The notes under the pieces: generated by a model | The model's database searches: none | Told to the model about the DNA's origin: nothing | Seen by the model: the letters and a program-made list of their open reading frames with translations, nothing else | NCBI GenBank assembly: GCA_964650355.1 | Contig: CAZYTL010000002.1 | Location: 109,465-173,464, forward strand | DNA length: 64,000 nucleotides | Origin: an uncultured Gammaproteobacteria bacterium | GTDB lineage: Bacteria > Patescibacteriota > Microgenomatia > CAYXHB01 > CAZYTL01 | Direction of reading: 5' to 3' | In this document: piece by piece, positions 2,718-27,089 of the stretch | How the letters are laid out: every line of letters starts with the position of its first letter | Numbering within the stretch: position 1 is the first letter of the stretch | Made by a program: the position numbers and the translations under genes

Positions 2718-4481
2718 TTAATAGGTGGGCAGGACATTATAAACCAAAACTCCTGAATACAAATCCGCAGGCTGATAAGCATTGACTTCCAAGGCATAAG
2801 TGACGTAAACGGTGGACGAGTCTCGGCCTGAGGCTTGCATAACTTCATGCGATACGGTACTGATTGGGCCGAATTTTTCCACGCCCGAACTCCATCCTGA
2901 CACATCAGTATCAGTGGTATTGGCTCCTAGCCACCCGGTATTTACATTTGGCACTGTTCCAGTCGGACTCGTCCAGGCAATCGGAGTATTCCAGGTAGCT
3001 CCAGTAGCAGCAAAGGGGTCGATGTCGTTGGCCGGATAGATGCCCTGGAGCAAGCTAAGCAGCTTGGCTTTGACGGTGTACCCATACTCGGTATTGGTAC
3101 TAATGTCTAACTGATGGGCCACATATTTAGGAGAATTAATGCTGATGTTGTCAAAAGGCAAGGTGCTAAAGGTAGAGGCGACGGAAGTGGTAACGCCGTT
3201 GTTGACAGTATTGGCTCCCACTGAGGAAATGGTAAAGGTTAGCTGAGGGTCCACCTGGACTTCAGGGATGATGGTATAAGTGTCGATTAGATTACCAGCA
3301 GATTTCACTACTCTGAAACAATAGACTTCATTACCTAAAGCGGAATCGTCCCCTAAAGCAAAATCCCACAAGCCGTCTTCTCCGGCGGTAATGCTGGACT
3401 GGGAATTGGTAAAGTTATTAGCTTCTTCATAAGTTTGGTTTCTAATAGTATCGCCCCCGTGGCCAGGATCATTGGTGTTATCAGTCAAAGCAGCGCCGTC
3501 CGCAGGAGTGGAGTTGTCATAAAAACGCAAGGATCCTGAGCTGGGAGACAGATCGGCGTATGATTCTCCGCTAAAACCAGTGTCACAGGTGCCTGATCTG
3601 GCAGCCATCTGGAGTTTGAAGTCAAAACCACTGGCTGATAAATCCATATTACTGACATGCAACAATAATCTTAATCTGAATTGTTGACCAATGGTATCTA
3701 AATACGCGATAGTATCTTGGTCAGCCAACACGTTGCCCACGTCAGTAGAATTCTGATTCTCATACCAGCGATAAGCGACCAGATTGTAAGTGGGGTCACC
3801 GCCTTGCCAGTTGTCCCAGGTAAGGTAATGAGTGGAGCCAGTAGTAGCGATGGCTTTGGTTACTATTCCCACTGATCCGCCAGAAAAAGTGCTATCAGCA
3901 ATTGGGCCAATCACGGTAGTGAACCCGGAGCCGGTATCTAATTTAACTATTACTTGGGTGCCGCTGGCTTCCAGTCTCAGGACATCGCCGCCAGACGGAG
4001 TCCAGCTATAATTGGATCCCAGCTGAGTTAACCCGGTGGTGCCGGAGCTGCTTAAATCATGATTACTAGCAGCATAAAGCCTGAGAGTGTCGTCATTATC
4101 ACTCCATTGGGTATAATAACCGCTAAACGAAGTGTAATCAGCTGTGCCGTCGGTGTTCACTCTAACGGCCACACCTGACCGGGCGTCGGTGCCGGTGGCA
4201 CTGACAAACTCCAATTGGGAATATTGATCATTGGCCGGTTGGATGGTGTAAAGCGCCCGGCCTGCTAAGGTCTGGCTGGTGCCGTCTTCACTCCACAAGC
4301 GCAATTGATTGCTATTCACTTGGATTGCCTGTTGATTGTTTTCGCTTTCTATCCAGTCGGTTCCCAGGCTGGAGTTATTAGCACGATCGAAATTATCCGT
4401 ATAGGTGGCGGCCCGCACTTTTAGGCTGAAACCAAACAGCATTACTACTCCCCAAAAGCCAATCAGAACAAATTTTTTCAT
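2718..4481 (-). CDS. secreted surface protein, paralog A (shared C-terminal ~190-aa domain ending ...VYNVLPTY)
   Basis: Signal peptide MKKFVLIGFWGVVMLFGFSLKVRA; S/T/G-rich; C-terminal domain highly similar to the C-terminus of the 4578..5687 product (VDPQ(L/F)TF...STFSTLPF...NIDPFAA(T/S)G...TGW(L/I)GANTTDTDVSGW...VYVTYA(L/I)E(V/A)N(A/V)YQPAD). Confidence 0.5.
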   Translation of the reverse strand: MKKFVLIGFWGVVMLFGFSLKVRAATYTDNFDRANNSSLGTDWIESENNQQAIQVNSNQLRLWSEDGTSQTLAGRALYTIQPANDQYSQLEFVSATGTDARSGVAVRVNTDGTADYTSFSGYYTQWSDNDDTLRLYAASNHDLSSSGTTGLTQLGSNYSWTPSGGDVLRLEASGTQVIVKLDTGSGFTTVIGPIADSTFSGGSVGIVTKAIATTGSTHYLTWDNWQGGDPTYNLVAYRWYENQNSTDVGNVLADQDTIAYLDTIGQQFRLRLLLHVSNMDLSASGFDFKLQMAARSGTCDTGFSGESYADLSPSSGSLRFYDNSTPADGAALTDNTNDPGHGGDTIRNQTYEEANNFTNSQSSITAGEDGLWDFALGDDSALGNEVYCFRVVKSAGNLIDTYTIIPEVQVDPQLTFTISSVGANTVNNGVTTSVASTFSTLPFDNISINSPKYVAHQLDISTNTEYGYTVKAKLLSLLQGIYPANDIDPFAATGATWNTPIAWTSPTGTVPNVNTGWLGANTTDTDVSGWSSGVEKFGPISTVSHEVMQASGRDSSTVYVTYALEVNAYQPADLYSGVLVYNVLPTY

Positions 4482-4577: not shown

Positions 4578-5687
4578 TTAATAGGTAGGAATGGCGTTAT
4601 AAACCAAAGTTCCTGTATAAGTATCTGCTGGCTGGTACACGTTAGCTTCAATCGCATAAGTGACGTACACACTGGTTGATCCATTATCAGAGGTGGCACT
4701 GGACATGACCGTGTTGGCAGAAGAATTTACGGGACCGAATAGTTGAGTGCCGGGATTCCAGCCTGACACGTCAGTGTCGGTGGTATTGGCCCCAATCCAA
4801 CCGGTATCGGTATTGGGTGTGGTACCGGTAGGTTCGGTCCACCCGAGGGGAGTTCCCCAGGCAACTCCGCTGGCGGCAAAGGGATCAATATTATTGGCAC
4901 TGTAGGTGCCGGTCATCTGGCTTAACATCTTCATGGTGACGGTATAACCCGAATTGGAGTTAGTAGTCACTGTTAACTTATGGGCCAGATACTTAGGCGT
5001 GGACGCGGTCAAGTTAGAAAACGGCAGGGTACTAAAAGTAGACGTGTCTGAGGTGGTGATGCCGTTGTTGACTGTACTGGTTCCCACCCCAGCTACCACG
5101 AAAGTGAACTGCGGATCTACCCGGGCGCTCACGGTGACGGCGGCCACCACGGTATAAGTGAGAATTCCAGTATCCACACTGGTAGTCCCCAAGTCAGAAT
5201 AAGTGGTTAACCTGACAAAACAGGTATCTGATGAGGTGTCCCCACCTGCCTGACAGTCGTCAATGGCGTGATTGGTAATGGAGGAGAGAGGCACGCCCAA
5301 CACAGTGCTGGCTCCGATTACTTGTCCGGTAGCCGTGTGCTGGAGCTTTAAAATTCCTGAGCCTCCACTGGTAGTATCAAGGGTCCAATTTGCGTCCAGA
5401 TTAGTTAAACTTCCTAAAGACGCGGTGGTCAAGTCAAGACCACTGGGTTTGCTGGCGGAACCGGAAGGAGTGGTTGCGTAAGTAAACCGGATCTCCCTCA
5501 AAGTAGCAGCGCTATTAGTAGTAAAGGTAAAGGTATGGGTACTGGAGGTAGAAGGTCGGGAATCCGACAACGTGTCTTTGCCTCCGGTCAATTGCGCGGC
5601 AAATATTTGAGGAACCAAAACCAGGTTGAGTACTAGCACTAACGTCAATGCGATTAATGAACTAAAAAATTTATGGGCAGTTTTCAT
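4578..5687 (-). CDS. secreted surface protein, paralog B (shared C-terminal domain ...VYNAIPTY)
   Basis: Signal peptide MKTAHKFFSSLIALTLVLVLNLVLVPQIFA; T/S-rich; C-terminal ~190 aa paralogous to 2718..4481 product. Confidence 0.5.
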   Translation of the reverse strand: MKTAHKFFSSLIALTLVLVLNLVLVPQIFAAQLTGGKDTLSDSRPSTSSTHTFTFTTNSAATLREIRFTYATTPSGSASKPSGLDLTTASLGSLTNLDANWTLDTTSGGSGILKLQHTATGQVIGASTVLGVPLSSITNHAIDDCQAGGDTSSDTCFVRLTTYSDLGTTSVDTGILTYTVVAAVTVSARVDPQFTFVVAGVGTSTVNNGITTSDTSTFSTLPFSNLTASTPKYLAHKLTVTTNSNSGYTVTMKMLSQMTGTYSANNIDPFAASGVAWGTPLGWTEPTGTTPNTDTGWIGANTTDTDVSGWNPGTQLFGPVNSSANTVMSSATSDNGSTSVYVTYAIEANVYQPADTYTGTLVYNAIPTY

Positions 5688-5852: not shown

Positions 5853-7700
5853 ATGCATGAGACTTTACTCACAACTAGTAAGACGCCTCTTATGAATCAC
5901 CCTCGACCATCAGAATCAATAACTATGGGAGCCCGGATAGTTAAAATCGTGGTCCAGAACCGCATTTTCCTGACTGCTTTGGTGCTGCTCACTTTAGTTA
6001 CTTATGCAAATGCCATACCCGGCGATTTTTCCATGGTGGATGACATCACGGGCATTGTGGAAAATGCTAAACTGGCTGATTTCAGCGCCAGTGTGAAAAC
6101 TTTCCATTTACAAACCATTATTTATTCGCTGATCATCAACACCTTTAAGTTAAACCCGGTTCCGTTTCACTGGCTTTCTCTCCTGCTGCATGGTTTTAAT
6201 GTAGTATTAGCCTTTATCTTGCTTTATTTGTTGTTCGGGAAAACCATCTCCCGCATTGCGGCCCTAATATTTGCGGTCCATCCGGTCAACACTGAGGCGG
6301 TTACCTGGATTAGCGGAGATCCTTACCTAATCAATGCGGTTTTTTTCCTGTCCATGACAATTGTTTACTATGGTTATAAACAGACAAACCAAATCCGCTA
6401 TTTGCTAGCTACTGTCCTAATTTATTCCGGATTATTAATTTTCACCCGCACTCCATTCGCACTGACTTTTCCGGTGGCTTTAATGGTGATCGATCAATGG
6501 CTGATCGAACCCCGGCTGCAATGGCGGTCAGCGGTTAAGTTGTTGGTGTTGATCATTCCCATGGGTCTTTATGTGATGCTTTTTTTAAATCAGGCAGCGC
6601 AGTATAGACAAAGTCAACAATATAGCCATGGGCTGTTGCTCAACCAGCAAGCGTTGATTCCGGTAGTAGAGAGTTATCCTTATACTATTTACTCTCTGGT
6701 CCGACTCTATGGGTTTCCCAAACGGTTGGTGATTTATTATGACGGTCAGATTATTACCCCGGCTTTACAATTATTAATGTATTTGGCTTTGGGGATCTAT
6801 GCGCTGGCTATCATCTATTTCTGGAAAAAGAAACGGCAAATTGCCGGACTGTTGATTTTATTAATCGTATTGATAGCCCCCACCTTCACCCCAGTGAGAG
6901 TGACCTGGTATATAGCAGAGAGATACCTTTATTTGGGATCGGCATTTTTCGGAGTGATCGTGGCCTTAGGGATAATTAAAGTCTGTTCTTTACTGCCCAA
7001 ACGCCGGCAATCTTTTTTGATGGCGGGAATGACCGGCCTAATAGTGGCATTATTGGCTATCAGAACAGTACTGCGCAATCAGGATTACCTGGATGCGAAG
7101 ACATTTGCCCAGCGAACAGTGAAGGACGCTCCTTACAGCGCGCGACCGTACGATGACCTGGGATCGGTATATTATTTGGAAAATAATTATCAGCAGGCGC
7201 TTTATTATTTCCGACAGGCTTTAACTATTAATCCGACGGTTGAGGCTTCCATGAACAATATCGGGCTCATTTATCTGAAAAGTCCTCCTGACCAGCTACC
7301 AGATCTGAGCCAAGTCAATGCATCAGCGCTTACAGACGACGATTTTTCAAAGCTGTCTGATTTGGCCTGGCAAGCCTACAACCAGAAGGAATTTAAGACT
7401 TCAGCTTACTTTGTGGGGGAGGCGTTGAGACTGCAACCCGATGATTTGTCGCTAAATAATTTACTAGGAGATCTGTACTTGCAAGCCGAACAGTTTAAAT
7501 TCGCCCAACAACAGTATCTGAAATCCATTGAATTAAATCCTCAGCAATCCGAAATTTTTTATAAACTTGGCTATACCTATTTCCAGCAACAAGATCTTCC
7601 CCAGGCGAAAAAATATCTGCAAAAAACTTTAGAATTAGATCCTGAAAATTCAGCTGCCAAAAATAATTTGCAAATGGTGGAATCTGAATTAGAGAAATAG
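5853..7700 (+). CDS. polytopic membrane protein, GT-C (PMT/ArnT-like) glycosyltransferase-like with C-terminal TPR repeats
   Basis: ~10 predicted TM helices in N-terminal 400 aa; C-terminal TPR-like repeats (…YYLENNYQQALYYFRQALTINP…YFQQQDLPQAKKYLQKTLELDPEN); true start may be an internal Met. Confidence 0.45.
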   Translation: MHETLLTTSKTPLMNHPRPSESITMGARIVKIVVQNRIFLTALVLLTLVTYANAIPGDFSMVDDITGIVENAKLADFSASVKTFHLQTIIYSLIINTFKLNPVPFHWLSLLLHGFNVVLAFILLYLLFGKTISRIAALIFAVHPVNTEAVTWISGDPYLINAVFFLSMTIVYYGYKQTNQIRYLLATVLIYSGLLIFTRTPFALTFPVALMVIDQWLIEPRLQWRSAVKLLVLIIPMGLYVMLFLNQAAQYRQSQQYSHGLLLNQQALIPVVESYPYTIYSLVRLYGFPKRLVIYYDGQIITPALQLLMYLALGIYALAIIYFWKKKRQIAGLLILLIVLIAPTFTPVRVTWYIAERYLYLGSAFFGVIVALGIIKVCSLLPKRRQSFLMAGMTGLIVALLAIRTVLRNQDYLDAKTFAQRTVKDAPYSARPYDDLGSVYYLENNYQQALYYFRQALTINPTVEASMNNIGLIYLKSPPDQLPDLSQVNASALTDDDFSKLSDLAWQAYNQKEFKTSAYFVGEALRLQPDDLSLNNLLGDLYLQAEQFKFAQQQYLKSIELNPQQSEIFYKLGYTYFQQQDLPQAKKYLQKTLELDPENSAAKNNLQMVESELEK

Positions 7701-7701
7701 T

Positions 7702-7959
7702 TTAGAACCCGACTACAATGGTGACGCTGTTTTCCCGCACCCGGATCACACCCCCGTCAATATCAAACTCCTTTACCTGACTCCCCTCACTTACCTGAAC
7801 TTTACCTTTAACTAATTCAGCATACAAAGGAGTGTGCTGGGGCAAAATTGCCAAATCTCCTTGGATGCCGGGAACCAGCACTCTTTGAGGTTGACCTTCG
7901 TATAACGTCTGATCCGGGCTGACGATGACGCAGCTAAAATTGGATTGAGGTTCAACCAT
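7702..7959 (-). CDS. atpC: F-type ATP synthase epsilon subunit (short form, N-terminal beta-sandwich only)
   Basis: Pattern …CVIVSPDQTLYEGQPQRVLVPGIQGDLAILPQHTPLYAELVKGKVQV…GGVIRV…VTIV matches epsilon N-domain (L.VVS.E..F.G.V..V..PG..G.LGILP.H.PL); separated from atpD by one gene. Confidence 0.65.
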   Translation of the reverse strand: MVEPQSNFSCVIVSPDQTLYEGQPQRVLVPGIQGDLAILPQHTPLYAELVKGKVQVSEGSQVKEFDIDGGVIRVRENSVTIVVGF

Positions 7960-8017
7960 AGGTTAATAAGACAACGGGCCTCTAGATAATTTAGCATCAA
8001 TCTTACCTGCGATTAAA

Positions 8018-9688
8018 TTATTCATTGGTAAACTGATGATTTTCGTAGATTTCAAAGTTGGGGCCGAAGCGATCGATAGCAAACAGTTGGGGTAGGGGAT
8101 AGTTCATGTCTAATAAATCAGGGATGCTGGACTTCGGGCTAGGACTGGCGAGCTGTTCACTGATTAAAGGATAATCTGTTTGATTAAGGTTATATTTATG
8201 CCAGAGGGTTTGCCGTTCTTCCGGAGTGAAATAGTCGATGACTATATAGCGATAATTTTGGGCCTGAAAATAACGATCCAAGTCTTGTCGTTGGTTTAAA
8301 TATTCCAGATTATTGGCGCTGGTGACCTGTTTAATATTGGGAAAGTCGGATTGATCCGTAGGAGTTAATGCTTGCAAGTAGGGCTTGAGGGTTTGGTAAT
8401 AATCGGTTTGATAGAGATCGGTTGGTTTTTGAGCCTGCAAGTCAGGTACCAAATAGATGTTATTGCGATTGATTAAAATTGGTTGATCATTAGGAATTTG
8501 ATGTTGGAGATAGTGCTTGGCAAGCACGTAGGTACTGGGCTGGAAAAACAAGTAATTTAACCGGACGTCAAGTATCAATGAATATCCGAGCGTGAGGATG
8601 AGCAGCCAACCTGCTAACCAGAAGGGTTTTTTAAGAAGCAGGTTTACTAAATAAGCAGTTCCAAAGATAAACAGCAATGACAAGGGTTGGGCAGACCGAG
8701 GATTAAGAAAGGCTTTAAATAAATAGACTGCAAATCCGGAAACGGTAAATAGGCTAATTAACCAGAAGAAGGAGGTTTTTCGATATGCCATGATTATCAG
8801 ACCGATGAGGCCAATGATGATGATCGGTCCCTGGTAGGAAAGCAAGACCTGAAGATAAAAGATAATTTGAGACCATAAACTGACCAGATTGACTGGCTGA
8901 CCCGCATAATTATTATGAAGGTGCCACTGAATGATCCCTGGGGTCAGATAAAGCAAACCTAAAATAAAGACGAGATTAATTAAGGCGGTGAGCCAAACCC
9001 GAGGCTGTTTTAACAGGGGAATGAATTTCTGACTGGTAACCACAGCGATGAGCCAAAAGACTCCCAAGGCTAATCCCATGGGAAAGGCGGCCACGGATAA
9101 GCTAAGAAAGGTGATGGATAATAAAAATTTATTAAGTTGGCCGGTGACCCGCCACTCGGTCAGGGACCATAATAAACCCAGGGAGCAAAACAGATAAAGT
9201 GAATTGTATCTACCAAAATGCGCAAATAAGACGCGGAAGAAATCCGTGGTATACAAAAGCGTCAGGATGAGGCCGAATTTTCGGGATTGCAGTCTAAGGC
9301 CCAACCGGTAAATAAACCAGACGGATAAGCCGGAGATGACAGCTGACATGATTCTGGGGATAAACAAAAACATGCCGGGAGAACTCAAGACTAGTGTCCG
9401 ACCGATGTCGTTAACCGAAGGGAAAATGCGGAACAGAAGTAAGAACAAAACGCTGATAGCTAAAAAGGGTAGTTGCAGCCAGGGCCATAAGGGTAGGTAG
9501 GTGGAAAAGTGGCGGAAGTTTTGAGTTTTGAGGATTAAAAGGCTGACTCTTTGGCTTTCAAATTCGTCTCCTACGCTAAAAGCCAGGGGGTGGTCAAAAA
9601 AAGGATTGCCCAAGCCAATGATAATGGCCAAGAGCATGATCCAGACGATGGGTTGGGAGAGGAGCTTACGGGAGGTGCTTTTAAACAT
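8018..9688 (-). CDS. polytopic membrane protein, possible GT-C family glycosyltransferase
   Basis: 556 aa, >10 TM helices then C-terminal soluble domain; 'FDHPLAF' loop reminiscent of HPPL loop of PMT/ArnT; inserted between atpD and atpC. Confidence 0.35.
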   Translation of the reverse strand: MFKSTSRKLLSQPIVWIMLLAIIIGLGNPFFDHPLAFSVGDEFESQRVSLLILKTQNFRHFSTYLPLWPWLQLPFLAISVLFLLLFRIFPSVNDIGRTLVLSSPGMFLFIPRIMSAVISGLSVWFIYRLGLRLQSRKFGLILTLLYTTDFFRVLFAHFGRYNSLYLFCSLGLLWSLTEWRVTGQLNKFLLSITFLSLSVAAFPMGLALGVFWLIAVVTSQKFIPLLKQPRVWLTALINLVFILGLLYLTPGIIQWHLHNNYAGQPVNLVSLWSQIIFYLQVLLSYQGPIIIIGLIGLIIMAYRKTSFFWLISLFTVSGFAVYLFKAFLNPRSAQPLSLLFIFGTAYLVNLLLKKPFWLAGWLLILTLGYSLILDVRLNYLFFQPSTYVLAKHYLQHQIPNDQPILINRNNIYLVPDLQAQKPTDLYQTDYYQTLKPYLQALTPTDQSDFPNIKQVTSANNLEYLNQRQDLDRYFQAQNYRYIVIDYFTPEERQTLWHKYNLNQTDYPLISEQLASPSPKSSIPDLLDMNYPLPQLFAIDRFGPNFEIYENHQFTNE

Positions 9689-9750
9689 TTTACCTAATCT
9701 GGAAGTGATAACTGTGAGGGATGGCTAAATAAATAAACACTCTAGGAGTC

Positions 9751-9781
9751 TAGTTGAAAAGTCGGCTCGATTTTTCAACTA
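9751..9781 (-). terminator. hairpin (tagttgaaaa-gtcggctcgat-ttttcaacta) downstream of atpD
   Basis: 10-bp perfect inverted repeat with extendable inner stem; U-tract is inside stem so terminator strength uncertain. Confidence 0.3.
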
Positions 9782-9884
9782 AGTCATTCTGGAGGCAAAG
9801 CCGATAGAATCTCGTTTGGGATCCTATCACTTCGTTCCAGGATGACGTTGGCGTTCCTACTTTTCAAATAGGCTGTAAGACAGT

Positions 9885-12259
<2,375 letters not shown>

Positions 12260-12265
12260 AACTGG

Positions 12266-14260
12266 TTATTTTTTATTGACAGTGGGTTTTCTCTTGGGAG
12301 TTTTTGATTTGACGGGTTTTTTTGCCGGGGGGCTGATCTTTTCAGGCGGCTTTTCGGGTGGTTCCTGTTCCGGTTTCTGGTCATCTGACTCTGGTTGGGA
12401 ATTGGATTGGTTTTCAGTCCCTTCCCGATTCTGGTTTTCTTTTTCTTGATGGGTTTCTGTTTGGTGTGTTTGAGGCGGGGTTTGATTTTCAGGTTGGGAA
12501 GTTTTTTCTTCTTTTTGCGGCTGGCCGGTTTGGACAGGCGGATTGTCAGGTGCCGGGGAGGCGGTTGGTAACGAGGTATTTTCTTCATTTGCAGGCTGAT
12601 TTTCCTGGTTAGAGTCAGGTAGTTGCAGATGATCTCTCATTGAGGGGTACTTTTTAAGATACAAGCGCAAACACATTTCCAGATAAGATTCTATTTCCTC
12701 CAATTTCTTGGCGCGTTCATAGAGCTGTTTAAATTCTGTATTGTCAAGTTCACGAAAGAATTGGATAAACTGAGTTTCAAACGAGCCTACTTCGGACAAA
12801 GGCATTTGATCCATGCGTCCGGAAGTGGCGATGGCTAGCAATAAAACTTCTTCCTCCTCAGATAGGTTGAGAGAAGACTCTTGAGCGAATATTTCCCTGA
12901 CTCGTTTACCCCGACTGATTTCCTGGACGGTTTCTTCTGCCACCTCAGTATTCATGGTTTCAAATGACTTTACTTCGTTATAACGGGCCAGTTGCCTGCT
13001 GGCCAACTCACCTACTTTTTTTAATAACTGGGTCTGGACTTTGCCTCCAATTCTGGAAACAGATAAACCTGAATTAACGGCAGGTATGATGCCTTCGTGC
13101 ATCATATTGGCATCTAGATAAATATGGCCGTCGGTGATAGACATTAAGTTGGTAATAATATACTCAGACACGTCACCTGATTGGGTTTCCGCAATGGGTA
13201 AAGCAGTCATGGAGCCACCTCCTAATTTTTTGTCTAATTTGGCGGCTCTTTCCAGGAGTCGGGAATGTAAGAAAAAAATATCACCGGGATAAGCGTCTCT
13301 TCCCGGAGAGCGTTTCATGAGTAGGGATACCTGACGGTAGGCCTTGGCCTGCTTTGACAAATCATCGTAAACAATTAAACAATGTTTTCCTTGGTACATA
13401 AAATGTTCGCACAAAGCTGCTCCCACATAAGGAGCAATGTATTGCAATGAAGGAGAATCATCTGACAGGGCTAACACCACAGTGGTAAACTTCATAGCTT
13501 CCCTTTCTTGCAATAATTGGACGGTAGCTTTGGCCTTGGCAGCCTGAATGCCGATGCCCACATACACACAAATGACTTCTTGGCCTTTTTGGTTACAAAT
13601 GATATCGATGGCGGTTCTGCTTTTGCCGGTTTTTCTATCTCCGATCACTAGCTCTCTTTGTCCCTTGCCGACTGGAACAGTAGTATCGATGGCCATCAAT
13701 CCGGTGTGCAAAGGCTGATAAATATTTTCTCTTGACACGACTGAGGGAGCAGGAAATTCAACATCTCTGGTTTCATCACCCTCAATCGGACCTTTACCGT
13801 CCAAGGGATCGCCCAGGGGGTTGATCACTCTTCCCAATAAAGATTTTCCGGTAGGAATTGACAGTCTTTTGTTGGTGGCGATGGCATGATCATCAACTTT
13901 AATTTTGCTATAGTCCCCCAAGACTACTGTTTCTACTGAGTCCTCCTCCACTCCTAAAACCAAGGCCTGTTCTGATCCGGAGCTGGTTTTAACTTTAATC
14001 ACGTCTTCCACTCGGACATTATCAATGCCACTGATTTTACAAACACCGTCGCCAATATAGGAAACTTTTCCGATCTGGGAAACTTTTTCTTTAAGATCTT
14101 CTTCTGGAAAAGTGTAGTTGATTAATTCTTTAAAGGACTGATCTGCTGCCAGTTCAGCTTGTTCCTTTACCCCAGCACTGGGTAATTGAATGCCATGCAG
14201 ATCTACTTTAAAGAGATCTGGTTTTGAATCTCGGTTTAAAAATTTAGTCAGATCGTTCAT
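12266..14260 (-). CDS. atpA: F-type ATP synthase alpha subunit with ~40-aa N-terminal extension and ~130-aa P/Q/E/K-rich C-terminal tail
   Basis: Walker A GDRKTGKS; long collinear match to F1 alpha (…LIVYDDLSKQAKAYRQVSLLMKRSPGRDAYPGDIFFLHSRLLERAAKL…); low-complexity tail ends KKPVKSKTPKRKPTVNKK. Confidence 0.95.
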   Translation of the reverse strand: MNDLTKFLNRDSKPDLFKVDLHGIQLPSAGVKEQAELAADQSFKELINYTFPEEDLKEKVSQIGKVSYIGDGVCKISGIDNVRVEDVIKVKTSSGSEQALVLGVEEDSVETVVLGDYSKIKVDDHAIATNKRLSIPTGKSLLGRVINPLGDPLDGKGPIEGDETRDVEFPAPSVVSRENIYQPLHTGLMAIDTTVPVGKGQRELVIGDRKTGKSRTAIDIICNQKGQEVICVYVGIGIQAAKAKATVQLLQEREAMKFTTVVLALSDDSPSLQYIAPYVGAALCEHFMYQGKHCLIVYDDLSKQAKAYRQVSLLMKRSPGRDAYPGDIFFLHSRLLERAAKLDKKLGGGSMTALPIAETQSGDVSEYIITNLMSITDGHIYLDANMMHEGIIPAVNSGLSVSRIGGKVQTQLLKKVGELASRQLARYNEVKSFETMNTEVAEETVQEISRGKRVREIFAQESSLNLSEEEEVLLLAIATSGRMDQMPLSEVGSFETQFIQFFRELDNTEFKQLYERAKKLEEIESYLEMCLRLYLKKYPSMRDHLQLPDSNQENQPANEENTSLPTASPAPDNPPVQTGQPQKEEKTSQPENQTPPQTHQTETHQEKENQNREGTENQSNSQPESDDQKPEQEPPEKPPEKISPPAKKPVKSKTPKRKPTVNKK

Positions 14261-14310
14261 AATGTCCCATATCTCAATTCCTAATCCAATAGTACTACGC
14301 TTACTGTTCC

Positions 14311-14889
14311 CTATTCCACTTCTACCAGTTTAGAAGTCTTGGTTAAACTGGCAATCCACTGCCTTTGAAATTGTTGGAATTTAGACCGCAGAGAGTGATC
14401 AAAGACTAAATTTTCTATTCTCACTAACGCTCCGCCTAAAATGGCGGGTTTGACTTCAACGCTGATAACTACATGACGGTTTAATAACTGCCCAAACTGT
14501 TGGGCAAAATCGCGGACTTCTGACGTTTGTAAGTCAAGAGCCACAGCCATAAAGACAATGCCTATTTTTTCTATCTGTTGCTGAAAGTTTTGCACAAATT
14601 CATCAAAGTAATCAAAATTCTCCGAACTGAATAGCCAAAATTGGTGATCGGCAAATAAGTCAGAAAAGAAATTGTATAATTCTGGCTGGGATACGTCTTT
14701 CAAAAGAAGGAGCAGTTGGGTTTTCTTTTGGCCAGCAGTCAGGGTTTCATCATCCACGATTTGATGGGCATGCATTTTAAAGCCGCGATTACTGGCCAAA
14801 CTTTCTAAGATGGTGGAAACCTGAGATAAGGTTTGGGTGTCATATATCTGTCTGATCAGTGATAGCGATAAACTTTCTATGCCGTTCAT
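14311..14889 (-). CDS. atpH: F-type ATP synthase delta (OSCP) subunit
   Basis: Operon position; C-terminal OSCP-like motif ILGGALVRIENLVFDHSLRSKF. Confidence 0.7.
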   Translation of the reverse strand: MNGIESLSLSLIRQIYDTQTLSQVSTILESLASNRGFKMHAHQIVDDETLTAGQKKTQLLLLLKDVSQPELYNFFSDLFADHQFWLFSSENFDYFDEFVQNFQQQIEKIGIVFMAVALDLQTSEVRDFAQQFGQLLNRHVVISVEVKPAILGGALVRIENLVFDHSLRSKFQQFQRQWIASLTKTSKLVEVE

Positions 14890-14892
14890 AGT

Positions 14893-15423
14893 TTACAATT
14901 TTTGTTTTTCTTCTTTAATTTCGTTAACCGCTCTTTGGATTAGGTCGACTTGATCCGCCCGAGTCAGGCTTTTTTCCACCACTTTTTCACTGACACTGAT
15001 GACTAATTTGACCATTTCTCCTTCTATCTGATGTTGACGTTTTTCACGATAGTCTTCCAATTCTTGGTCAGCACTGGTAAGAATTTCCTGAGATTGTTCC
15101 CGAGCTTGCTTGAGAATGGCTTTTTTCTCTTCTTTAGCGTCCTCAACTATTTGATCATATTCATCCTGGGCCTGATTTTCTAAATTTTCGGCTACATGCT
15201 GCAGCCTTCTAATTAGAGCAAAAGCTTTATCAAGTCTTTCTTCTGTTTCGTTATGGACACGTTTTTGGTGTTCGGCAAGTTGTTTTTTGGCGTGTTCTAA
15301 AAAGGCTACTAACTGTTGTTCGTGTTTGCGGGACCGGCGCCAAAAATAGATCACCAAAATGGCAATATAAAAGACTGTGATTCCAGTATAAATTAACCAA
15401 GTATTATCCATGGGCAGTTTCAA
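14893..15423 (-). CDS. atpF: F-type ATP synthase b subunit
   Basis: Single N-terminal TM (WLIYTGITVFYIAILVIYFW) followed by long charged coiled-coil; operon position. Confidence 0.75.
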   Translation of the reverse strand: MKLPMDNTWLIYTGITVFYIAILVIYFWRRSRKHEQQLVAFLEHAKKQLAEHQKRVHNETEERLDKAFALIRRLQHVAENLENQAQDEYDQIVEDAKEEKKAILKQAREQSQEILTSADQELEDYREKRQHQIEGEMVKLVISVSEKVVEKSLTRADQVDLIQRAVNEIKEEKQKL

Positions 15424-15427
15424 TCCA

Positions 15428-17467
15428 TTATCTAATGATCAGCAAGGCTGCTGCAACCGCTAAACCGGCAGCTAATACAAATGCTAATAAACTTCCGTAT
15501 AAATTTAATTGTAACCTGGTCTTAGCAAAAGGGTTCCTGCCAATGGCTTCCAGGCCCCGGCTGGCCATCATGCCTCCTCCGATGCTGGCACCCAGAATGC
15601 CAAAACCCGCTGCCAATCCGGCGCCGATATAGCGGATAACCGCGTACTTGTTTAGACCTTCGCCCTTTAATAACTCCTGAAGTTTTTCTGTGACCTGGCC
15701 TTTAACCTCACCTATTCCCCCACCTCCGCCTGGGGGGATCTCATCTTTATCCGGGGAACCTTGGACTTCAAATACATTACTCACGCCGATCATCCCGTCA
15801 CCTGCCACTGTAATGGTGACCTCTTTATGCGCGAGGGAAATTATGGCTTGAAGATGCCAAATTCCATCTGCAGAAGCACTGGCCACCGGCGGATCAATAG
15901 TGCCGGTGGTGTCGGTAATGGCTAAAGGTCCGTCGTAATCAGTAATGAATTCGTTTAATGAATTTTTGGCGCCGATGGAGACCACAAAGGGAACACCTAC
16001 CTGTTGAGGGCTGGGAATCTCGTCGATCACTAGCCTGCGATTCAAGCCGGTGCCCACACTGCCCACTACTTTGGCAAACTTGGTGATGGTTCCTTGGGTG
16101 GCGGTAACCGTTAAAGTGCCAATGCCTGATTCAGAGGCGGTCAATAACACAGTGTTACCAACAGCATTGCTCAGCGTTCCTAAATTACCTTCGATATCAA
16201 AGGAGTAATTTACCCCGGTAACCAGATTACCATAAGCATCTACCCCTTCTGCCAAAATAGGAATGGTGGCCCCGGCTAAGGCGGAGATGATATCAGGATC
16301 AACATTTACTGACGACAACACCCCTGGTATCGGGGTAGGGGTGATGGTGGGAGTGGGAGTAATAGTGGGCACTGTGCTGGGAGTGGGAGTAGCAGTAGTT
16401 GTGGGTGTGGGCGACGGAGCCTGAGTGGGCGTAGGAGTGCCCGCACCCCCCCCGCCTGTCCCGGTACTGGCCTCAACCACAGACACGCTAGCAGTGCTGC
16501 CAACTATTCCGGAAGTAGCTTTGACGGTATTTAAGAAGTTACCTACAGTGGTGCCGGCGGTAAATAATCCGGTAGAATCTATGGTACCTCCGCCGTTTTC
16601 CACTGTCCAGGTGACTGAAGATAAGGTTTTTTGATTGTTGTAGAGATCGTAGCCGGTGGCCGTAAAGGGAATAAAACTACTGGTGGGTACGACTGCCAAA
16701 CTGGGACTGATGATGATGTAGGTTAAAATTCCTGGGGTGGCAGTTTCGTAAAAAGGTACGGCATTGCTGATGCCGCTGGCCAAAGTACCGGTGACAATGT
16801 AAGTGCCACTTTTATTGCCTAAAGTAAGGGCGGTGCTCACGTAGCCGCTACTGTTAGAATTTCCGGATAAACTACTCAAAAGTTGTCCGGAAGCTCCGAT
16901 CGGATAACTGGTGATGGCCCAGTTAACACCCACGTTGGCAAGAGGATTGTTAAAAGGATCCAGAACCCGCAGCTGTAAATTTACCGGCAAGAGATTGGTG
17001 ACGATTCCGGACTGATTATTGCCGGCAGTAATAGTGAGAAATTTAATCCGGGAATCAGCTGACACGGTGAAAGTCGAGGACTGACCGTTGATACTGCCGG
17101 TGGTAGCGGTGATCTTTGTGGAGCTAGAAGCCTGAGTGATATAGACATTGCCGGTCCATACTCCGGCGGAAAAACTTCCGGTCGCAGTGGGACTGAGGGT
17201 GGCCGTATCATCAGTCAAAGTCACGGTACCTGAATAACTAGTTAATTTCTGGCCGTTTTCATCAAGGGCGGTAATGGTAATTTGGAAAGGTACTCCGGCT
17301 AATTTGGTACCGCCGTTAGTATCATCGACCACTGAAAAAGAGGTTAAGGTTTGGGCGATAACCGGATGAACACCCCAATTCAAAAACACCATGCCCAACA
17401 ACACAACCACTGCCAGCCAGCCCCCCAAACGGCTGAGGGGATTTAAGAGACCTTTTTTTGCTATCAT
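15428..17467 (-). CDS. secreted Ig-like (Big_2-type) repeat protein with Pro/Thr linker, fused in-frame to a C-terminal ATP synthase c-subunit-like two-helix hairpin (atpE position)
   Basis: Signal-peptide-like N-terminus; Ig-like repeats; PT-rich linker; last 74 aa (…YIGAGLAAGFGILGASIGGG…GRNP…LYGSLLAFVLAAGLAVAAALLIIR) align to c-subunit helix1-RQP loop-helix2 but helix 2 has no Asp/Glu; possible internal start (AGGTGA-N5-ATG at 15793) would yield a 121-aa c-like protein. Confidence 0.6.
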   Translation of the reverse strand: MIAKKGLLNPLSRLGGWLAVVVLLGMVFLNWGVHPVIAQTLTSFSVVDDTNGGTKLAGVPFQITITALDENGQKLTSYSGTVTLTDDTATLSPTATGSFSAGVWTGNVYITQASSSTKITATTGSINGQSSTFTVSADSRIKFLTITAGNNQSGIVTNLLPVNLQLRVLDPFNNPLANVGVNWAITSYPIGASGQLLSSLSGNSNSSGYVSTALTLGNKSGTYIVTGTLASGISNAVPFYETATPGILTYIIISPSLAVVPTSSFIPFTATGYDLYNNQKTLSSVTWTVENGGGTIDSTGLFTAGTTVGNFLNTVKATSGIVGSTASVSVVEASTGTGGGGAGTPTPTQAPSPTPTTTATPTPSTVPTITPTPTITPTPIPGVLSSVNVDPDIISALAGATIPILAEGVDAYGNLVTGVNYSFDIEGNLGTLSNAVGNTVLLTASESGIGTLTVTATQGTITKFAKVVGSVGTGLNRRLVIDEIPSPQQVGVPFVVSIGAKNSLNEFITDYDGPLAITDTTGTIDPPVASASADGIWHLQAIISLAHKEVTITVAGDGMIGVSNVFEVQGSPDKDEIPPGGGGGIGEVKGQVTEKLQELLKGEGLNKYAVIRYIGAGLAAGFGILGASIGGGMMASRGLEAIGRNPFAKTRLQLNLYGSLLAFVLAAGLAVAAALLIIR

Positions 17468-17512: not shown

Positions 17513-18082
17513 ATGAAACAGGAGAAAATCAAGGCAATTATCGATCAATTTGTAACTGATCGCCAAACTATCGACAAAGAAAAACTCAGGCAATATGTTT
17601 TCCAGTCATTAAGTGATTGTCATACCGAAGCTGACTATCTGATCAATAATCCTGAAAATAAAAATCATCTACATCAAATAAATGATCTGTTGGCCCAACA
17701 CCAGCAACCGGAGATTCGTCAATTAGGACTCACAGCCATGGAGAGAATCAACCAACTGCATAAAGAAGTTGAGAGCTGGATTAACGATAACGTTGATTCT
17801 CCGGAAAGATTTGAATTCTCGATTCAAGCTAAAGCCACTGAAATAAGTTCCGGCAACCAGGATTATGATTATTGGGCTGCCTTGACTATTCGGCACGATC
17901 AACTTTTGGCTGCGGTAGTGATCTTCGAAGAAGCGTTGGCAAAGCTGTCCAGCTTGATTCATACGGAGCCAGCAGAAGCGGTTAACTCTCCGGATCTAAA
18001 ATATTTTGCCGAGCACACCAGCCCGGAACGAATTTTTAAGGCAGCGGAGGAGATTTACCAACTCAGGAACCAATTTCATTGA
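17513..18082 (+). CDS. hypothetical cytoplasmic protein
   Basis: 189-aa ORF divergent from ATP synthase operon; no motif recognised. Confidence 0.4.
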   Translation: MKQEKIKAIIDQFVTDRQTIDKEKLRQYVFQSLSDCHTEADYLINNPENKNHLHQINDLLAQHQQPEIRQLGLTAMERINQLHKEVESWINDNVDSPERFEFSIQAKATEISSGNQDYDYWAALTIRHDQLLAAVVIFEEALAKLSSLIHTEPAEAVNSPDLKYFAEHTSPERIFKAAEEIYQLRNQFH

Positions 18083-18857: not shown

Positions 18858-20270
18858 ATGAAATTGAAACTTTTTTCCGGAAAACAAATTGTTTATATCT
18901 GGCTCGGCTTTGCAGGGGTGGTGTTGATGCTCCACTTTATTTTAAGACAAATCCGTTACCAGGTTTTTTTTGATATGGACAATTATTGGCCGGTGAGTAT
19001 TTTTTTACCTAAAATCCCTGCTCCCCAAGATGCAGTGATCTTGTTGGGGATAATTCTATTATGGTGGGCATTTTTAAGATACTGGGATTCGGCGCATAAG
19101 TCTATTTGGAAAATCACGTTTCTTATAGGAGCTTTAATAGTTGCCACTACAGCACTTCAGGGAATTAAACAAGGGTTCGTATTTCCCATCACGGGGACAG
19201 GACCGGGATCGATTACCTACTATGTTGATATTCAAGGGATCACCGACCCTGTTAAATTATTAACCAGTTATACCACGATTCAATCGACTTTGCGCGCTCA
19301 CAGCCGAGTCCATCCTCCTGGGGCAATGCTGTTTTCCTATTTACTGGACAAAATTTGGCATGAGCCGATTTTTACCTCAGTGGCTCAAGCTTTGATTGGC
19401 TTGCTAAGCATTCCTTTGCTCTATGGGGTGCTGAGAAAACGTGATGATTCCCAGTGGGCTTTTTTGGGGGCTACGATTTTAGGATTGTTGCCTGCCACCC
19501 AAATTTATTATCTTTCCAGCTTAGATGCGGTGGTGGTTGTAATTTTCTTAATGATTGTTTATCTGGGCTATCAAAAGTTAAATCAGAAGTCTGCTAAACT
19601 TCAGTGGCAATGGCTGATGATCACGGCTGTGATTTTATGGCTGGCTGCGTTCATCTCGTTTGCCGTGCTGGTGTTAATTTCGGTGATACTTTTCATTGAC
19701 TGGCAAAAAAATCAGCGCCTGACCTGGAGTCTTCCTCTGTTGGGCATCACGGTGGCGATTTTTTTTGTAGTTTACAATTTTACAGGGTTTAATTATTTAA
19801 ACAGTCTGGCTATCGCCACCAAATATGAAGGTCCTCCGCAGTTTTATTTGTTGGCTGAGCCTTTGTCTTACGTGGCGACCCGAATAGAAGATTGTCTCGA
19901 GATTCTGGTGTTTTTTACTCCCTGGTTAGCATATCTACTAGTGAGGCAGTTTAAACAGCAAATTCATAAATATAAGCAGGTGTTACTGCCTCGACCGTCC
20001 GTCAATAATTTCAAAAAGTTAGTAAGACAACAGCCAATAATTAATATCGGTTTGGTGGTAGTAGGGGCTCTAATTTTGTTTTTCTTAGCCGGCGCTTACT
20101 ATACCGGCGAAACTGCCAGGGCAGCTAACTTTATTTACCCCTTTCTGATTATGCTGGTTATTCCGATTATAGAGCGAGCTAAACCAGGCGTGCGCGAGCA
20201 AAAGTTGCTCCTGAGTTTGATTTTTCTGCAGACCGTGGTCATGCAAACGTTTGGGTGGTTCGTATGGTAA
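18858..20270 (+). CDS. polytopic membrane protein, GT-C-like (HPPG loop)
   Basis: 470 aa, ~10 TM helices; loop motif RVHPPGAMLF resembles HPPL/HPPG loop of GT39/GT83/DUF2723 enzymes. Confidence 0.4.
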   Translation: MKLKLFSGKQIVYIWLGFAGVVLMLHFILRQIRYQVFFDMDNYWPVSIFLPKIPAPQDAVILLGIILLWWAFLRYWDSAHKSIWKITFLIGALIVATTALQGIKQGFVFPITGTGPGSITYYVDIQGITDPVKLLTSYTTIQSTLRAHSRVHPPGAMLFSYLLDKIWHEPIFTSVAQALIGLLSIPLLYGVLRKRDDSQWAFLGATILGLLPATQIYYLSSLDAVVVVIFLMIVYLGYQKLNQKSAKLQWQWLMITAVILWLAAFISFAVLVLISVILFIDWQKNQRLTWSLPLLGITVAIFFVVYNFTGFNYLNSLAIATKYEGPPQFYLLAEPLSYVATRIEDCLEILVFFTPWLAYLLVRQFKQQIHKYKQVLLPRPSVNNFKKLVRQQPIINIGLVVVGALILFFLAGAYYTGETARAANFIYPFLIMLVIPIIERAKPGVREQKLLLSLIFLQTVVMQTFGWFVW

Positions 20271-22545: not shown

Positions 22546-22632
22546 ATGCTATTGTCAATGGTTAGGTGGTAAATGTCAAATGATTGACGAGTACTTTAAT
22601 TTATTAAAGAGATAATTATGTTCATGAACTGA

Positions 22633-24846: not shown

Positions 24847-24950
24847 GAGGAATGTTGTCTTGATTAAATTTCACTGGTATCCAAAATTGTCATTGTCTGG
24901 AACCGATGGTTAATTTGGGTAAGAATAACGAAATTTGATTTTTCACCACT

Positions 24951-27077: not shown

Positions 27078-27089
27078 GACAGACCCATT

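Follow-up and report, generated by a model that had tools for sequence, protein, structure and literature searches.

An F-type ATPase operon without subunit a whose subunit c is fused to a secreted Ig-domain chain in CPR bacteria

What can a rotary ATPase do when its operon encodes no subunit a? The question is raised by an F-type ATP synthase operon of an ultra-small (CPR) bacterium in the window, which is the whole 64-kb stretch of DNA analyzed here. Pfam and NCBIfam assignments bear out the gene order and coordinates given for it in a preliminary description, namely c-like, b, delta, alpha, gamma, and beta, followed by a membrane protein and then epsilon, on the minus strand (Table 1). All eight ORFs are intact, and the divergent gene reported upstream of the c-like gene is present. 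The missing subunit had been taken to mean either that atpB lies elsewhere or that the complex is non-canonical.

Table 1. Features of the ATPase operon and its neighbors in the window.
Feature	Position	Strand	Basis
Subunit c fusion protein, 679 aa	15428..17467	-	Pfam Big_1 + ATP-synt_C
c hairpin, residues 607-679	15431..15649	-	Alignment to E. coli c and other canonical c subunits
Extracytoplasmic part of c fusion: Ig-like domains 1-3, PT linker, Ig-like domains 4-5	15752..17347	-	AF2
Subunit b, 176 aa counted from a TTG start (172 aa in the L001 call)	14893..15423	-	TIGR01144 + position
Subunit delta (OSCP), 192 aa	14311..14889	-	Pfam OSCP
Subunit alpha, 664 aa	12266..14260	-	TIGR00962
Subunit gamma, 317 aa	11306..12259	-	Pfam ATP-synt
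Subunit beta, 472 aa	9885..11303	-	TIGR01039
Inserted polytopic membrane protein, 556 aa, ~9 TM helices	8018..9688	-	Weak PMT_2
Subunit epsilon, 85 aa	7702..7959	-	Pfam ATP-synt_DE_N
Divergent gene between epsilon and pilin-like genes	5853-7700		
Secreted pilin-like protein, 369 aa, two beta-sandwich domains	4578..5687	-	CPR_Pam_pilin_C, AF2
587-aa paralogue of the 369-aa pilin-like protein	2718..4481	-	BLASTP, CPR_Pam_pilin_C
Divergent soluble protein, 189 aa	17513..18082	+	Conserved position

The alpha and beta subunits belong to orthodox NCBIfam families, with alpha scoring 562 bits against TIGR00962 (cut-off 484) and beta 610 bits against TIGR01039 (cut-off 463). Alpha is 42% identical to E. 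coli alpha and contains the P-loop GDRKTGKS and the Arg finger SPGRDAYPGD; its N-terminus is extended by ~45 aa, and ~130 aa at its C-terminus form a low-complexity tail rich in K/P/E/Q. Beta and its E. coli counterpart share 52% identity, and the Walker A, GERTREG, and Walker B (LLFMDN) motifs of the window protein are intact in the alignment. Gamma, delta, and epsilon exceed their Pfam cut-offs (gamma, ATP-synt, 139 bits vs. 39.9; delta, OSCP, 58.5 bits vs. 22.3). The ATP-synt_DE_N match of epsilon spans residues 9-83, which is the beta-sandwich domain only. Its C-terminal helical (inhibitory) domain is missing, and E. coli epsilon (139 aa) can be aligned with the protein only up to the end of the N-terminal domain. 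The alignments show an F1 (alpha, beta, gamma, and a short epsilon) that should be catalytically intact.

Subunit b is a peripheral stalk protein with one N-terminal TM helix followed by a long helix. It is assigned by a weak match to TIGR01144 (E = 5e-9, below the cut-off; 24% identity to E. coli b) together with its position, which is the same across all related operons. Of the parts that an ion-translocating F1Fo needs, the alpha3beta3 head motifs (Walker motifs, catalytic Glu, Arg finger) and both the central (gamma, epsilon) and the peripheral (b, delta) stalks are present.

The membrane gene between beta and epsilon, which had led the gene order to be described as interrupted, is real but is not a feature of the system. 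Its 556-aa product has only a weak PMT_2 match (Pfam, E = 0.022, below the cut-off), and no homologue occurs at any other locus or elsewhere in the window. Related operons contain insertions of other genes at other positions, or none. The gene is a local accident and lies outside the conserved system. The 189-aa divergent protein matches no family in Pfam or NCBIfam, and its homologues hold the same position in a Beckwithbacteria-like group, where the cluster comprises 16 members in 14 loci at a median of 600 nt upstream of c.

The gene described as c-like does not encode a small c subunit but a fusion protein. A signal/anchor helix is followed by five Ig-like domains, three before and two after a Pro/Thr-rich linker, and the protein ends in a c hairpin, with a Pfam ATP-synt_C match at residues 614-666 (27.5 bits vs. 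a cut-off of 24). The AF2 model (mean pLDDT 84) reproduces the signal helix, five beta domains (pLDDT > 90), and the terminal hairpin, and the PT linker (residues 336-377) is disordered (pLDDT < 50). The N-terminus of canonical bacterial c subunits faces outwards; in the fusion, the model shows it continuing as a predicted secreted chain of five Ig-like domains. Foldseek searches with the ectodomain return only generic multi-Ig strings, e.g., S-layer proteins and titin. A check for frameshifts around 15.4-17.5 kb had been advised, and there is none, because the ORF is colinear with more than 70 homologues at 92-100% coverage. The full-length homologues, ~70 in number, have 50-66% identity, and some of them carry the name "ATP synthase F0 subunit C [Candidatus Beckwithbacteria]". 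No region of the protein is better conserved than the hairpin (72% identity over 50 family members), and an HMMER search of 1.84 billion representatives places it at the very C-terminal end of proteins 190-2653 aa long.

The hairpin contains a Gly-rich helix 1, the cytoplasmic loop LEAIGRNPFAK, and a helix 2 without Asp or Glu. Alignment with E. coli c and three other canonical c subunits places a Val at the carboxylate position, 20 residues past the loop Arg. This column is hydrophobic in all 22 diverse c fusions aligned, and none of 50 close homologues has an Asp or Glu anywhere in helix 2. We know of no ion-translocating c subunit that lacks Glu or Asp at this position. The membrane-embedded carboxylate that an ion-translocating F1Fo needs is absent from the window c, and subunit a would therefore have nothing to act on. 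The ectodomain fusion and the loss of the carboxylate are together the main point of this locus, which the preliminary description overlooked.

Subunit a itself was sought in several ways. In the window, Pfam models run over all TM-rich ORFs detect nothing, a phmmer search with E. coli AtpB against the six-frame translation yields only E > 2, and a 17-sequence a-subunit HMM run with --max has a best E of 1.1 on a 71-aa ORF. The absence of the subunit from the 64 kb, as first described, stands. Across 1.10 Mb of large-c loci, the a-subunit HMM gives a best E of 0.34. A subunit a with its conserved Arg toward the c ring, which ion translocation by F1Fo needs as well, is missing from both the 64-kb window and these 1.10 Mb.

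The comparison set comprised 80 loci from a scan of GTDB species genomes; the window and seven loci obtained before the scan were annotated with them. The 84 distinct related loci are divided into 17 small-c and 67 large-c loci, the latter including the window and a second assembly of it. At all 17 loci with a small, Glu-bearing c, atpB is directly upstream of c. At the large-c loci, the helix-2 carboxylate is found in 0 of 67 and atpB (within ~10 kb) in 0 of 67, and the lack of atpB, the lack of the carboxylate, and an N-terminal ectodomain on c occur together in 67 of 67. These loci come from Microgenomates, Berkelbacteria, CPR2, CPR3, and Saccharibacteria-labelled genomes, with uninterrupted a-less operons at L003, L006, and L007. 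The membrane subunits of WWE3 and OP11 ATPase operons have been described as lacking homology to known a, b, and c subunits (Kantor et al. 2013, PMC3812714). Judged by gene content, the a-less, large-c operon is a conserved type and no assembly fault, and loss of the ion path is well supported by the sequences. Of the two explanations offered at the outset, the carboxylate-free hairpin and the a-less operon at every large-c locus favor a non-canonical complex.

Downstream of the operon are two genes for pilin-like proteins. AF2 predicts for the 369-aa protein (pLDDT 95) a two-beta-sandwich fold that is compatible with a Pam pilin, and the C-terminal 195 aa of its 587-aa paralogue are 57% identical to it (BLASTP E = 4e-70). 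Against CPR_Pam_pilin_C (NF058581), the 369-aa protein has an E of 0.002, below the cut-off, and the paralogue an E of 2.5e-4; the two copies score 18 and 21 bits against a cut-off of 55 bits. The same model matches 14 of 21 members of the pilin-like family (best E = 1.2e-8). Among loci whose c is 600-830 aa long and which have enough room after epsilon, a family member follows epsilon in 15 of 21 and is missing from the other 6. The family is found at none of the 17 canonical small-c loci and at none of 19 loci in the 250-320-aa c class. In the window one gene separates epsilon from the pilin-like genes, while elsewhere in the class they mostly follow epsilon directly. Sub-threshold HMM matches and gene adjacency suggest that the window proteins are distant relatives of CPR Pam pilins. 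The c ectodomain has no profile similarity to the pilin-like family (hhalign probability 22%).

Pam pilin genes co-localize with ATP synthase genes and with a protein called "tail fibre-like" in Saccharimonadia and Microgenomatia, which has been read as a link to ATP production; the missing subunit a and the c fusion are not described there (Troman et al., bioRxiv 10.64898/2026.03.03.709456). The window resembles that system in that two-domain beta-sandwich pilin-like proteins adjoin ATP synthase genes. It differs in that its proteins match the Pam pilin model below the cut-off and that no PamC/PamD-like (FimC/PapD-like) chaperones were recognized among the neighbors scanned with Pfam or NCBIfam.

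The window operon shares with the canonical bacterial F1Fo operon (atpIBEFHAGDC) its orthodox alpha, beta, gamma, delta, epsilon, and b subunits, the order c-b-delta-alpha-gamma-beta-epsilon, alpha and beta above the NCBIfam atpA/atpD equivalog cut-offs, and a c hairpin with a Gly-rich helix 1 and an R-N/Q-P loop. It differs in lacking subunit a and atpI, in a c without the ion-binding Glu/Asp but with a ~570-aa N-terminal secreted domain, in an epsilon without C-terminal inhibitory helices, and in the long low-complexity tail of alpha. The flagellar/T3SS export ATPase complex (FliI-FliJ-FliH) is an F1-plus-stalk relative that was recruited to build a surface appendage, and FliI models match the window alpha and beta at ~200 bits. 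That complex is a homohexamer without a c ring, whereas the window proteins are clearly of the atpA/atpD type and not FliI.

The N-ATPase (alternate F1F0, atpDCQRBEFAG) is likewise a second, atypical type of bacterial F-type operon, but it keeps subunit a and an ion-binding c. The window proteins score far below the alt_F1F0 cut-offs (beta 510 vs. 752, alpha 484 vs. 750, c 15 vs. 131), and their gene order is not that of the N-ATPase. The F1-like ATPases of Mycoplasma (Type 2/3, including the M. mobile gliding motor) are derived from F1, have left ion translocation, and serve mechanical or surface uses (PMC3369863, PMC8406192, PMC11864180). They are a precedent from a tiny host-dependent bacterium for the window system. 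The Mycoplasma clusters, which co-exist with a genuine F1Fo, consist of divergent alpha/beta paralogues and contain no b, delta, or c, whereas the window operon contains b, delta, and a c hairpin, with alpha and beta of genuine atpA/atpD type. The glide models (MMOB1660/1670) score 363 and 438 and those for MSC_0618/0619 score 282 and 420 against cut-offs of 520-850, whereas the atpA/atpD models score higher and pass.

The preferred reading, with a probability of roughly 0.55, is an F-type rotary ATPase that has given up ion translocation and now serves as a motor driven by ATP, with a rotor extending to the cell surface; it would hydrolyze ATP for mechanical work there rather than produce ATP. 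From homology and the monomer model, the hairpins would still form a ring under gamma and epsilon, since conservation within the fusion is highest in the Gly-rich helix 1 and the cytoplasmic loop. Without moving ions, ATP hydrolysis would turn this ring, or put torque on it, against the b/delta stator, and the crown of ectodomains would therefore convey movement or torque to an extracellular partner. The likeliest partner may be a Pam-type, donor-strand-exchange pilus or adhesin apparatus, since pilin-like genes directly follow epsilon in most loci of the class, and the motor could serve in its rotation, anchoring, or assembly. All ATP synthase genes are dispensable for growth of one cultured Saccharibacterium on its host (PMC10633639), and its operon may be canonical or large-c; this dispensability is counted against the motor reading.

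With subunit a missing, the b stalk has no obvious anchor against the rotor, and a plain rotary mechanism is incomplete. A static scaffold would fit this point, with the c hairpin as an oligomeric membrane anchor that displays many adhesin copies and an F1 that is non-rotary (ATP-dependent regulation, assembly) or idle. The ectodomains vary widely, from 170 to 2600 aa with Ig, NHL, and Kelch/fn3 neighbors, as display modules would, and S-layer proteins are among the Foldseek matches. Such a scaffold is nevertheless rather unlikely. Subunits b and delta are retained in essentially all related loci, and to our knowledge their sole role is to resist torque. The c loop that contacts gamma and epsilon is nearly invariant, and the F1 catalytic residues are intact in a complex whose beta is still so close to that of E. 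coli.

Residues 573-606, which link the fifth Ig domain to the hairpin, are poorly conserved (41% identity, pLDDT < 50 at 581-594), as they might be if the ectodomain were a long leader. Its cleavage would leave a normal-sized, carboxylate-free c ring and a membrane-tethered ATPase without extracellular output, and c subunits with cleaved presequences exist in organelles. However, the Ig domains are well conserved (54-64% identity among homologues), and hairpins stay joined to ectodomains of very different kinds, which speaks for a function of the fused protein. Ion translocation would in any case stay lost after cleavage, and processing of this kind is improbable.

Broken or rearranged operons are frequent in this group (split at L015 and L017, with c 10 kb from b in L004), one MAG contains two different c fusions on two contigs (L032, L042), and the atpB search covered 64 kb of a 174-kb contig and ~20 kb per related locus. 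An ordinary ATP synthase might then have its atpB, and perhaps a normal atpE, elsewhere, with the fusion as a minor or accessory ring component or a mere operon neighbor. The contrast between canonical and large-c loci in the presence of atpB within ~10 kb makes this very improbable, as does the fusion's place in the atpE position directly before b, with no small c ORF at large-c loci except truncated copies of the fusion. In the established Fo mechanism c needs its carboxylate to run against subunit a, and carboxylate-free hairpins in the ring could not do so normally. An operon decaying out of a reduced genome, as CPR genomes are and as the lack of any ATP synthase in some Microgenomates (PMC7143001) might suggest, is scarcely credible beside eight intact ORFs, alpha and beta above equivalog cut-offs, and the same architecture in lineages roughly as far apart as phyla.

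As far as the literature searches show, no rotary ATPase has been described before in which surface domains are fused to a c ring without carboxylates. A bolder and tentative extension of the motor reading is a third kind of bacterial rotary surface machine, in which F1 would use ATP, not an ion gradient, to turn a c ring with Ig-domain arms through the envelope, and so act in the rotation, anchoring, or assembly of Pam-type pili or giant adhesins with which CPR bacteria engage their hosts. If true, this would account for the retention of an "ATP synthase" by many CPR lineages that have no respiratory chain, and it offers a concrete hypothesis for the unexplained co-localization of ATP synthase genes with the CPR pilus system. 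The enzyme appears unable to couple to ions in many lineages, among them Microgenomates, Berkelbacteria, CPR2, CPR3, and some Saccharibacteria-labelled genomes; if so, scoring "ATP synthase present" in metabolic reconstructions would be wrong for large-c organisms. The large-c ATPase is a natural test case for tasks of the F-type motor beyond ion movement.

Two statements about the enzyme encoded by the ATP synthase operon of the window are well supported: it has lost both halves of the ion path and so cannot translocate ions by the known mechanism, and selection maintains it as an ATPase whose rotor and stator are complete. The operon comprises eight minus-strand ORFs between 7702 and 17467, which were identified with Pfam and NCBIfam models and have the gene order and coordinates of the preliminary description. 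The ORFs from c to beta are tightly spaced (2-50 nt apart), while the gene for a 556-aa membrane protein stands apart, 196 nt from beta and 58 nt from epsilon. A promoter and terminator scan returned background level only. Of the 32 two-kb bins, 29 have a positive GC skew, and cumulative skew climbs along the whole window; most window genes lie on the minus strand. Strong strand asymmetry has been reported for another Microgenomates genome (PMC7143001).

Features of the window, with the basis of each assignment
Feature	Position	Strand	Basis or description
c hairpin, end of 679-aa protein	15428-17467	-	PF00137 (residues 614-666), 27.5 bits, cut-off 24
b	14893-15423	-	weak TIGR01144 match and correct position
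delta/OSCP	14311-14889	-	Pfam OSCP above cut-off
alpha	12266-14260	-	TIGR00962, 562 bits against 484
alpha low-complexity tail	12266-12660		residues ~535-664
gamma	11306-12259	-	Pfam ATP-synt above cut-off
beta	9885-11303	-	TIGR01039, 610 bits against 463
556-aa polytopic membrane protein	8018-9688	-	PMT_2 match only, sub-threshold
epsilon, 85 aa	7702-7959	-	N-terminal beta-sandwich only
divergent gene, large membrane protein	5853-7700		between epsilon and the pilin-like genes
pilin-like protein	4578-5687		secreted 370-400-aa family
gene with pilin-like C-terminal half	2718-4481		same family
~190-aa soluble protein	17513-18082		divergent from c
large membrane protein	18858-20270		beside the operon
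five membrane paralogues	20275-31510		tandem, polytopic
2230-aa ORF and 427-aa protein	52052-58744		two predicted TM segments; 6 TM helices

Beta and alpha are 52% and 42% identical to their E. coli counterparts. Beta contains an intact Walker A motif (GGAGVGKT), catalytic segment (GERTREG), and Walker B motif (LLFMDN), and alpha contains an intact P-loop (GDRKTGKS) and Arg finger (SPGRDAYPGD); judged by these motifs, F1 looks fully functional. Epsilon lacks the C-terminal helical domain, which inhibits hydrolysis in many bacteria. Alpha carries an N-terminal extension of ~45 aa and a low-complexity tail of ~130 aa rich in Lys, Pro, Glu, and Gln. Its length ranges from 482 to 798 aa across related large-c loci, in which c is fused to an ectodomain, so these tails come and go.

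The gene initially described as c-like does encode a c hairpin, at the end of a 679-aa fusion with an ectodomain. In its AlphaFold2 model (50 homologues, mean pLDDT 84), residues 11-31 form a hydrophobic N-terminal helix and residues 43-331 make up three Ig-like beta domains (pLDDT > 95). The Pro/Thr-rich linker at 336-377 is disordered; beyond it come two further beta domains (386-569), a short linker, and a C-terminal helical hairpin spanning 607-644 and 646-678. In bacterial c subunits, both termini face outward and the loop points toward F1; a signal peptide and an N-terminal ectodomain are therefore topologically consistent, and the basic hairpin loop (SRGLEAIGRNPFAKTR) fits a cytoplasmic position. 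A Foldseek search of the model against the PDB gave generic multi-Ig matches and no functional lead.

When the hairpin is aligned with the c subunit of E. coli and three further canonical ones, the window protein has Val in the column of the invariant Glu/Asp, which lies 20 residues past the loop Arg, and its hairpin is thus unable to bind an ion. All fusions inspected have Ile, Leu, Val, Met, Ala, Phe, or Thr in this column, and none of 50 close homologues has an acidic residue in helix 2. The hairpin is the best conserved part of the fusion, with a mean identity of 72% (Ig4-5, 64%; Ig1-3, 54%; linker, 37%), and its Gly-rich helix 1 and R-N-P loop are nearly invariant among fusions. There is no sign of a frameshift in the c gene: ~70 full-length homologues of 610-700 aa are colinear with it over 92-100% of its length, and a second (Logan) assembly of the operon, L001, contains the same ORFs.

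Close homologues include proteins named by NCBI 'ATP synthase F0 subunit C [Candidatus Beckwithbacteria bacterium]', which assigns the window to the Microgenomates within the CPR. Many TPA_asm MAGs bear record titles of the kind 'uncultured Pseudomonadales/Gammaproteobacteria'; these clash with the CPR-type gene content of the MAGs and were ignored for taxonomy. A HMMER search with the last 105 aa against 1.84 billion representative proteins returned 109 matches. Many are 190-2653 aa long and carry the hairpin at their very C-terminal end; their loop reads EAIGRNP[FYLM]A[KR], and helix 2 lacks a carboxylate. Small c subunits of the canonical kind among the same matches have GRNPEA and the Glu. 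In the neighbourhoods of five long c proteins, the fusion is followed by b and delta and, in loci reaching far enough (L002, L003, L006, L007), by alpha, gamma, beta, and epsilon; none of the five contains an a gene.

A scan of one genome per GTDB species with a 22-hairpin alignment gave 126 confirmed matches, from which 80 loci were retained. These loci, seven others, and the window were annotated with phmmer and iterated HMMs seeded with E. coli and window subunits. As L001 is among the 67 large-c loci, the window operon is counted twice there. The small-c and large-c loci split cleanly; thus, loss of a, loss of the carboxylate, and gain of the ectodomain go together, and the a-less c-fusion operon is a conserved type, not a local oddity. 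One MAG, CAZHWT01, has two different c fusions on separate contigs (L032 and L042; at least 1685 aa and 674 aa), so a mixed or alternative ring composition is possible.

Comparison of small-c and large-c loci
Property	Small c	Large c
Helix-2 carboxylate	Glu, 17/17	0/67
atpB	directly upstream of c, 17/17	0/67
N-terminal signal or anchor on c	not applicable	present where the c ORF is N-terminally complete
Size of c and lineages	75-107 aa: Chloroflexota/Dehalococcoidia, Rhodospirillaceae, a spirochaete, one Paceibacterota	255-310 aa: Daviesbacteria, Gottesmanbacteria, Levyibacteriota, Woykebacteria, Pacebacteria
		630-820 aa: Microgenomates group, Berkelbacteria, CPR2, Saccharibacteria-labelled MAGs
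		1000-2650 aa: CPR3, Saccharimonadales; NHL repeats

Three tests agree with the preliminary description that the 64 kb contain no subunit a. Pfam found no ATP-synt_A in any TM-rich window ORF, matching instead an ABC-3 permease, TMEM260-like proteins, and unassigned proteins; phmmer with E. coli AtpB against the six-frame translation found nothing better than E = 2; and an unfiltered HMM of 17 a subunits from related loci gave a best window match of E 1.1, to a 71-aa ORF. Likewise, no atpB was detected in the 67 large-c loci, where the best match to this HMM has E 0.34 over 1.10 Mb. Three small membrane ORFs between gamma and beta in L028 show no likeness to a, and the HMM is blank there. The most important rival explanation is that atpB is located elsewhere in the genome and serves this operon. 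It is unlikely, because atpB accompanies every small c and no large c in these loci and because the c hairpin lacks the carboxylate. The 556-aa membrane protein was rejected as a substitute for a: it lacks homologues both in the other loci and in the rest of the window, it gives no ATP-synt_A signal, and its only match, to PMT_2, is weak.

The 556-aa gene does interrupt the operon between beta and epsilon, as first described, and this interruption is incidental. Some insertion occurs in 22 of the 67 large-c loci, at differing places and with unrelated genes, and the operons of L003, L006, and L007 are uninterrupted. One arrangement recurs, in the giant-c class (L004, L005, L030, L035, L040): c, a further surface protein, a LolD/FtsE-like ABC ATPase, and an FtsX/MacB-like permease, then b. 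The further surface protein is giant in three of the five loci (L005, L030, L035), with Kelch/fn3 matches where scanned. The LolD/FtsE-like and FtsX/MacB-like pair suggests that this cluster holds a second mechanotransmitting ATPase.

Neighbour families were found by clustering all ORFs of the loci. A secreted family of 370-400 aa lies 3' of epsilon and is represented in the window by two pilin-like genes, which the divergent gene separates from epsilon. Among loci of the 600-830-aa c class with at least 1.5 kb after epsilon, 15 of 21 contain this family, against 0/19 loci of the 250-320-aa c class and 0/17 canonical loci. The NCBIfam model CPR_Pam_pilin_C matches 14 of 21 members (best E 1.2e-8), and the window copies score 18 and 21 bits, far under its 55-bit cut-off. 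The AF2 model of the pilin-like protein (pLDDT 95) has a signal helix and two beta-sandwich domains, resembling two-domain adhesins and pilins in general; Foldseek returned generic two-domain adhesins from a PDB copy apparently without PamA/B. No relation between the c ectodomain and the pilin family was found by hhalign. The ~190-aa soluble protein divergent from c has no family assignment and occurs in 14 loci of a Beckwithbacteria-like group. In L015 and L017 the operon is rearranged (gamma-beta-epsilon-pilin-like, the gene of this ~190-aa protein, c-b-delta-alpha, two more pilin-like genes), and pilin-like genes remain joined to both halves.

In the 255-310-aa c class, b is longer (200-240 aa), and an unassigned family (median ~1370 aa) lies downstream of epsilon in 11 loci. 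It follows epsilon directly in L036 and L039 (e.g., L039 16103-20209) and occupies the place of the pilin-like genes of the 600-830-aa class. A sortase gene lies directly upstream of a 756-aa c fusion (L006 6417-7028, L007 1574-2185), a hint that surface proteins or pilins are attached covalently in the vicinity of the machine. The five tandem membrane paralogues of the window (708-756 aa) share 27-34% mutual identity, and the one scanned is TMEM260-like in Pfam (protein O-mannosyltransferase-like). TMEM260-like genes likewise flank or interrupt the operon in L002. Such proteins might glycosylate the Pro/Thr linker of the c fusion or the pilin-like proteins. Of the further large membrane proteins beside the window operon, one has TPR repeats. 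Farther away, a 2230-aa ORF precedes a 427-aa protein with no Pfam family.

A full-text literature search found no description of an a-less or c-fusion ATPase and nothing on carboxylate loss, fusion, or systematic atpB absence; it returned only a remark of 2013 about WWE3/OP11 and the Pam pilus paper of 2026. Kantor et al. (2013) likened the putative c to a membrane protein of OP11/WWE3 ATPase operons and took no position on direction or ion (PMC3812714). Troman et al. (June 2026; bioRxiv 10.64898/2026.03.03.709456) described donor-strand-exchange filaments of PamA and PamB in Ca. Mycosynbacter amalyticus and took ATP synthase co-localisation as a link to ATP production, mentioning neither an absent subunit a nor a c fusion. 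The c fusion is suspected to be what they call a 'tail fibre-like protein'. A 2024 review considers the near-universal Patescibacteria ATP synthase still a puzzle (PMC11665869), and all ATP synthase genes are dispensable in one Saccharibacterium (PMC10633639).

In functional terms, the operon falls outside the ion-translocating F1Fo family, since two features that define this family were looked for in the window and the large-c loci and neither was found. It is also neither a Mycoplasma-type F1-like cluster nor an N-ATPase: its scores for those models lie below the cut-offs, and it retains b, delta, and c. The description that fits it best is a new F-type ATPase variant that is widespread. In the proposed mechanism, the c hairpins would form a ring under gamma and epsilon, ATP hydrolysis would turn or torque this ring, and its ectodomains would bring the output to the cell surface. 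Going by gene linkage, the partners there may be Pam-type pili or, in other classes, giant adhesins.
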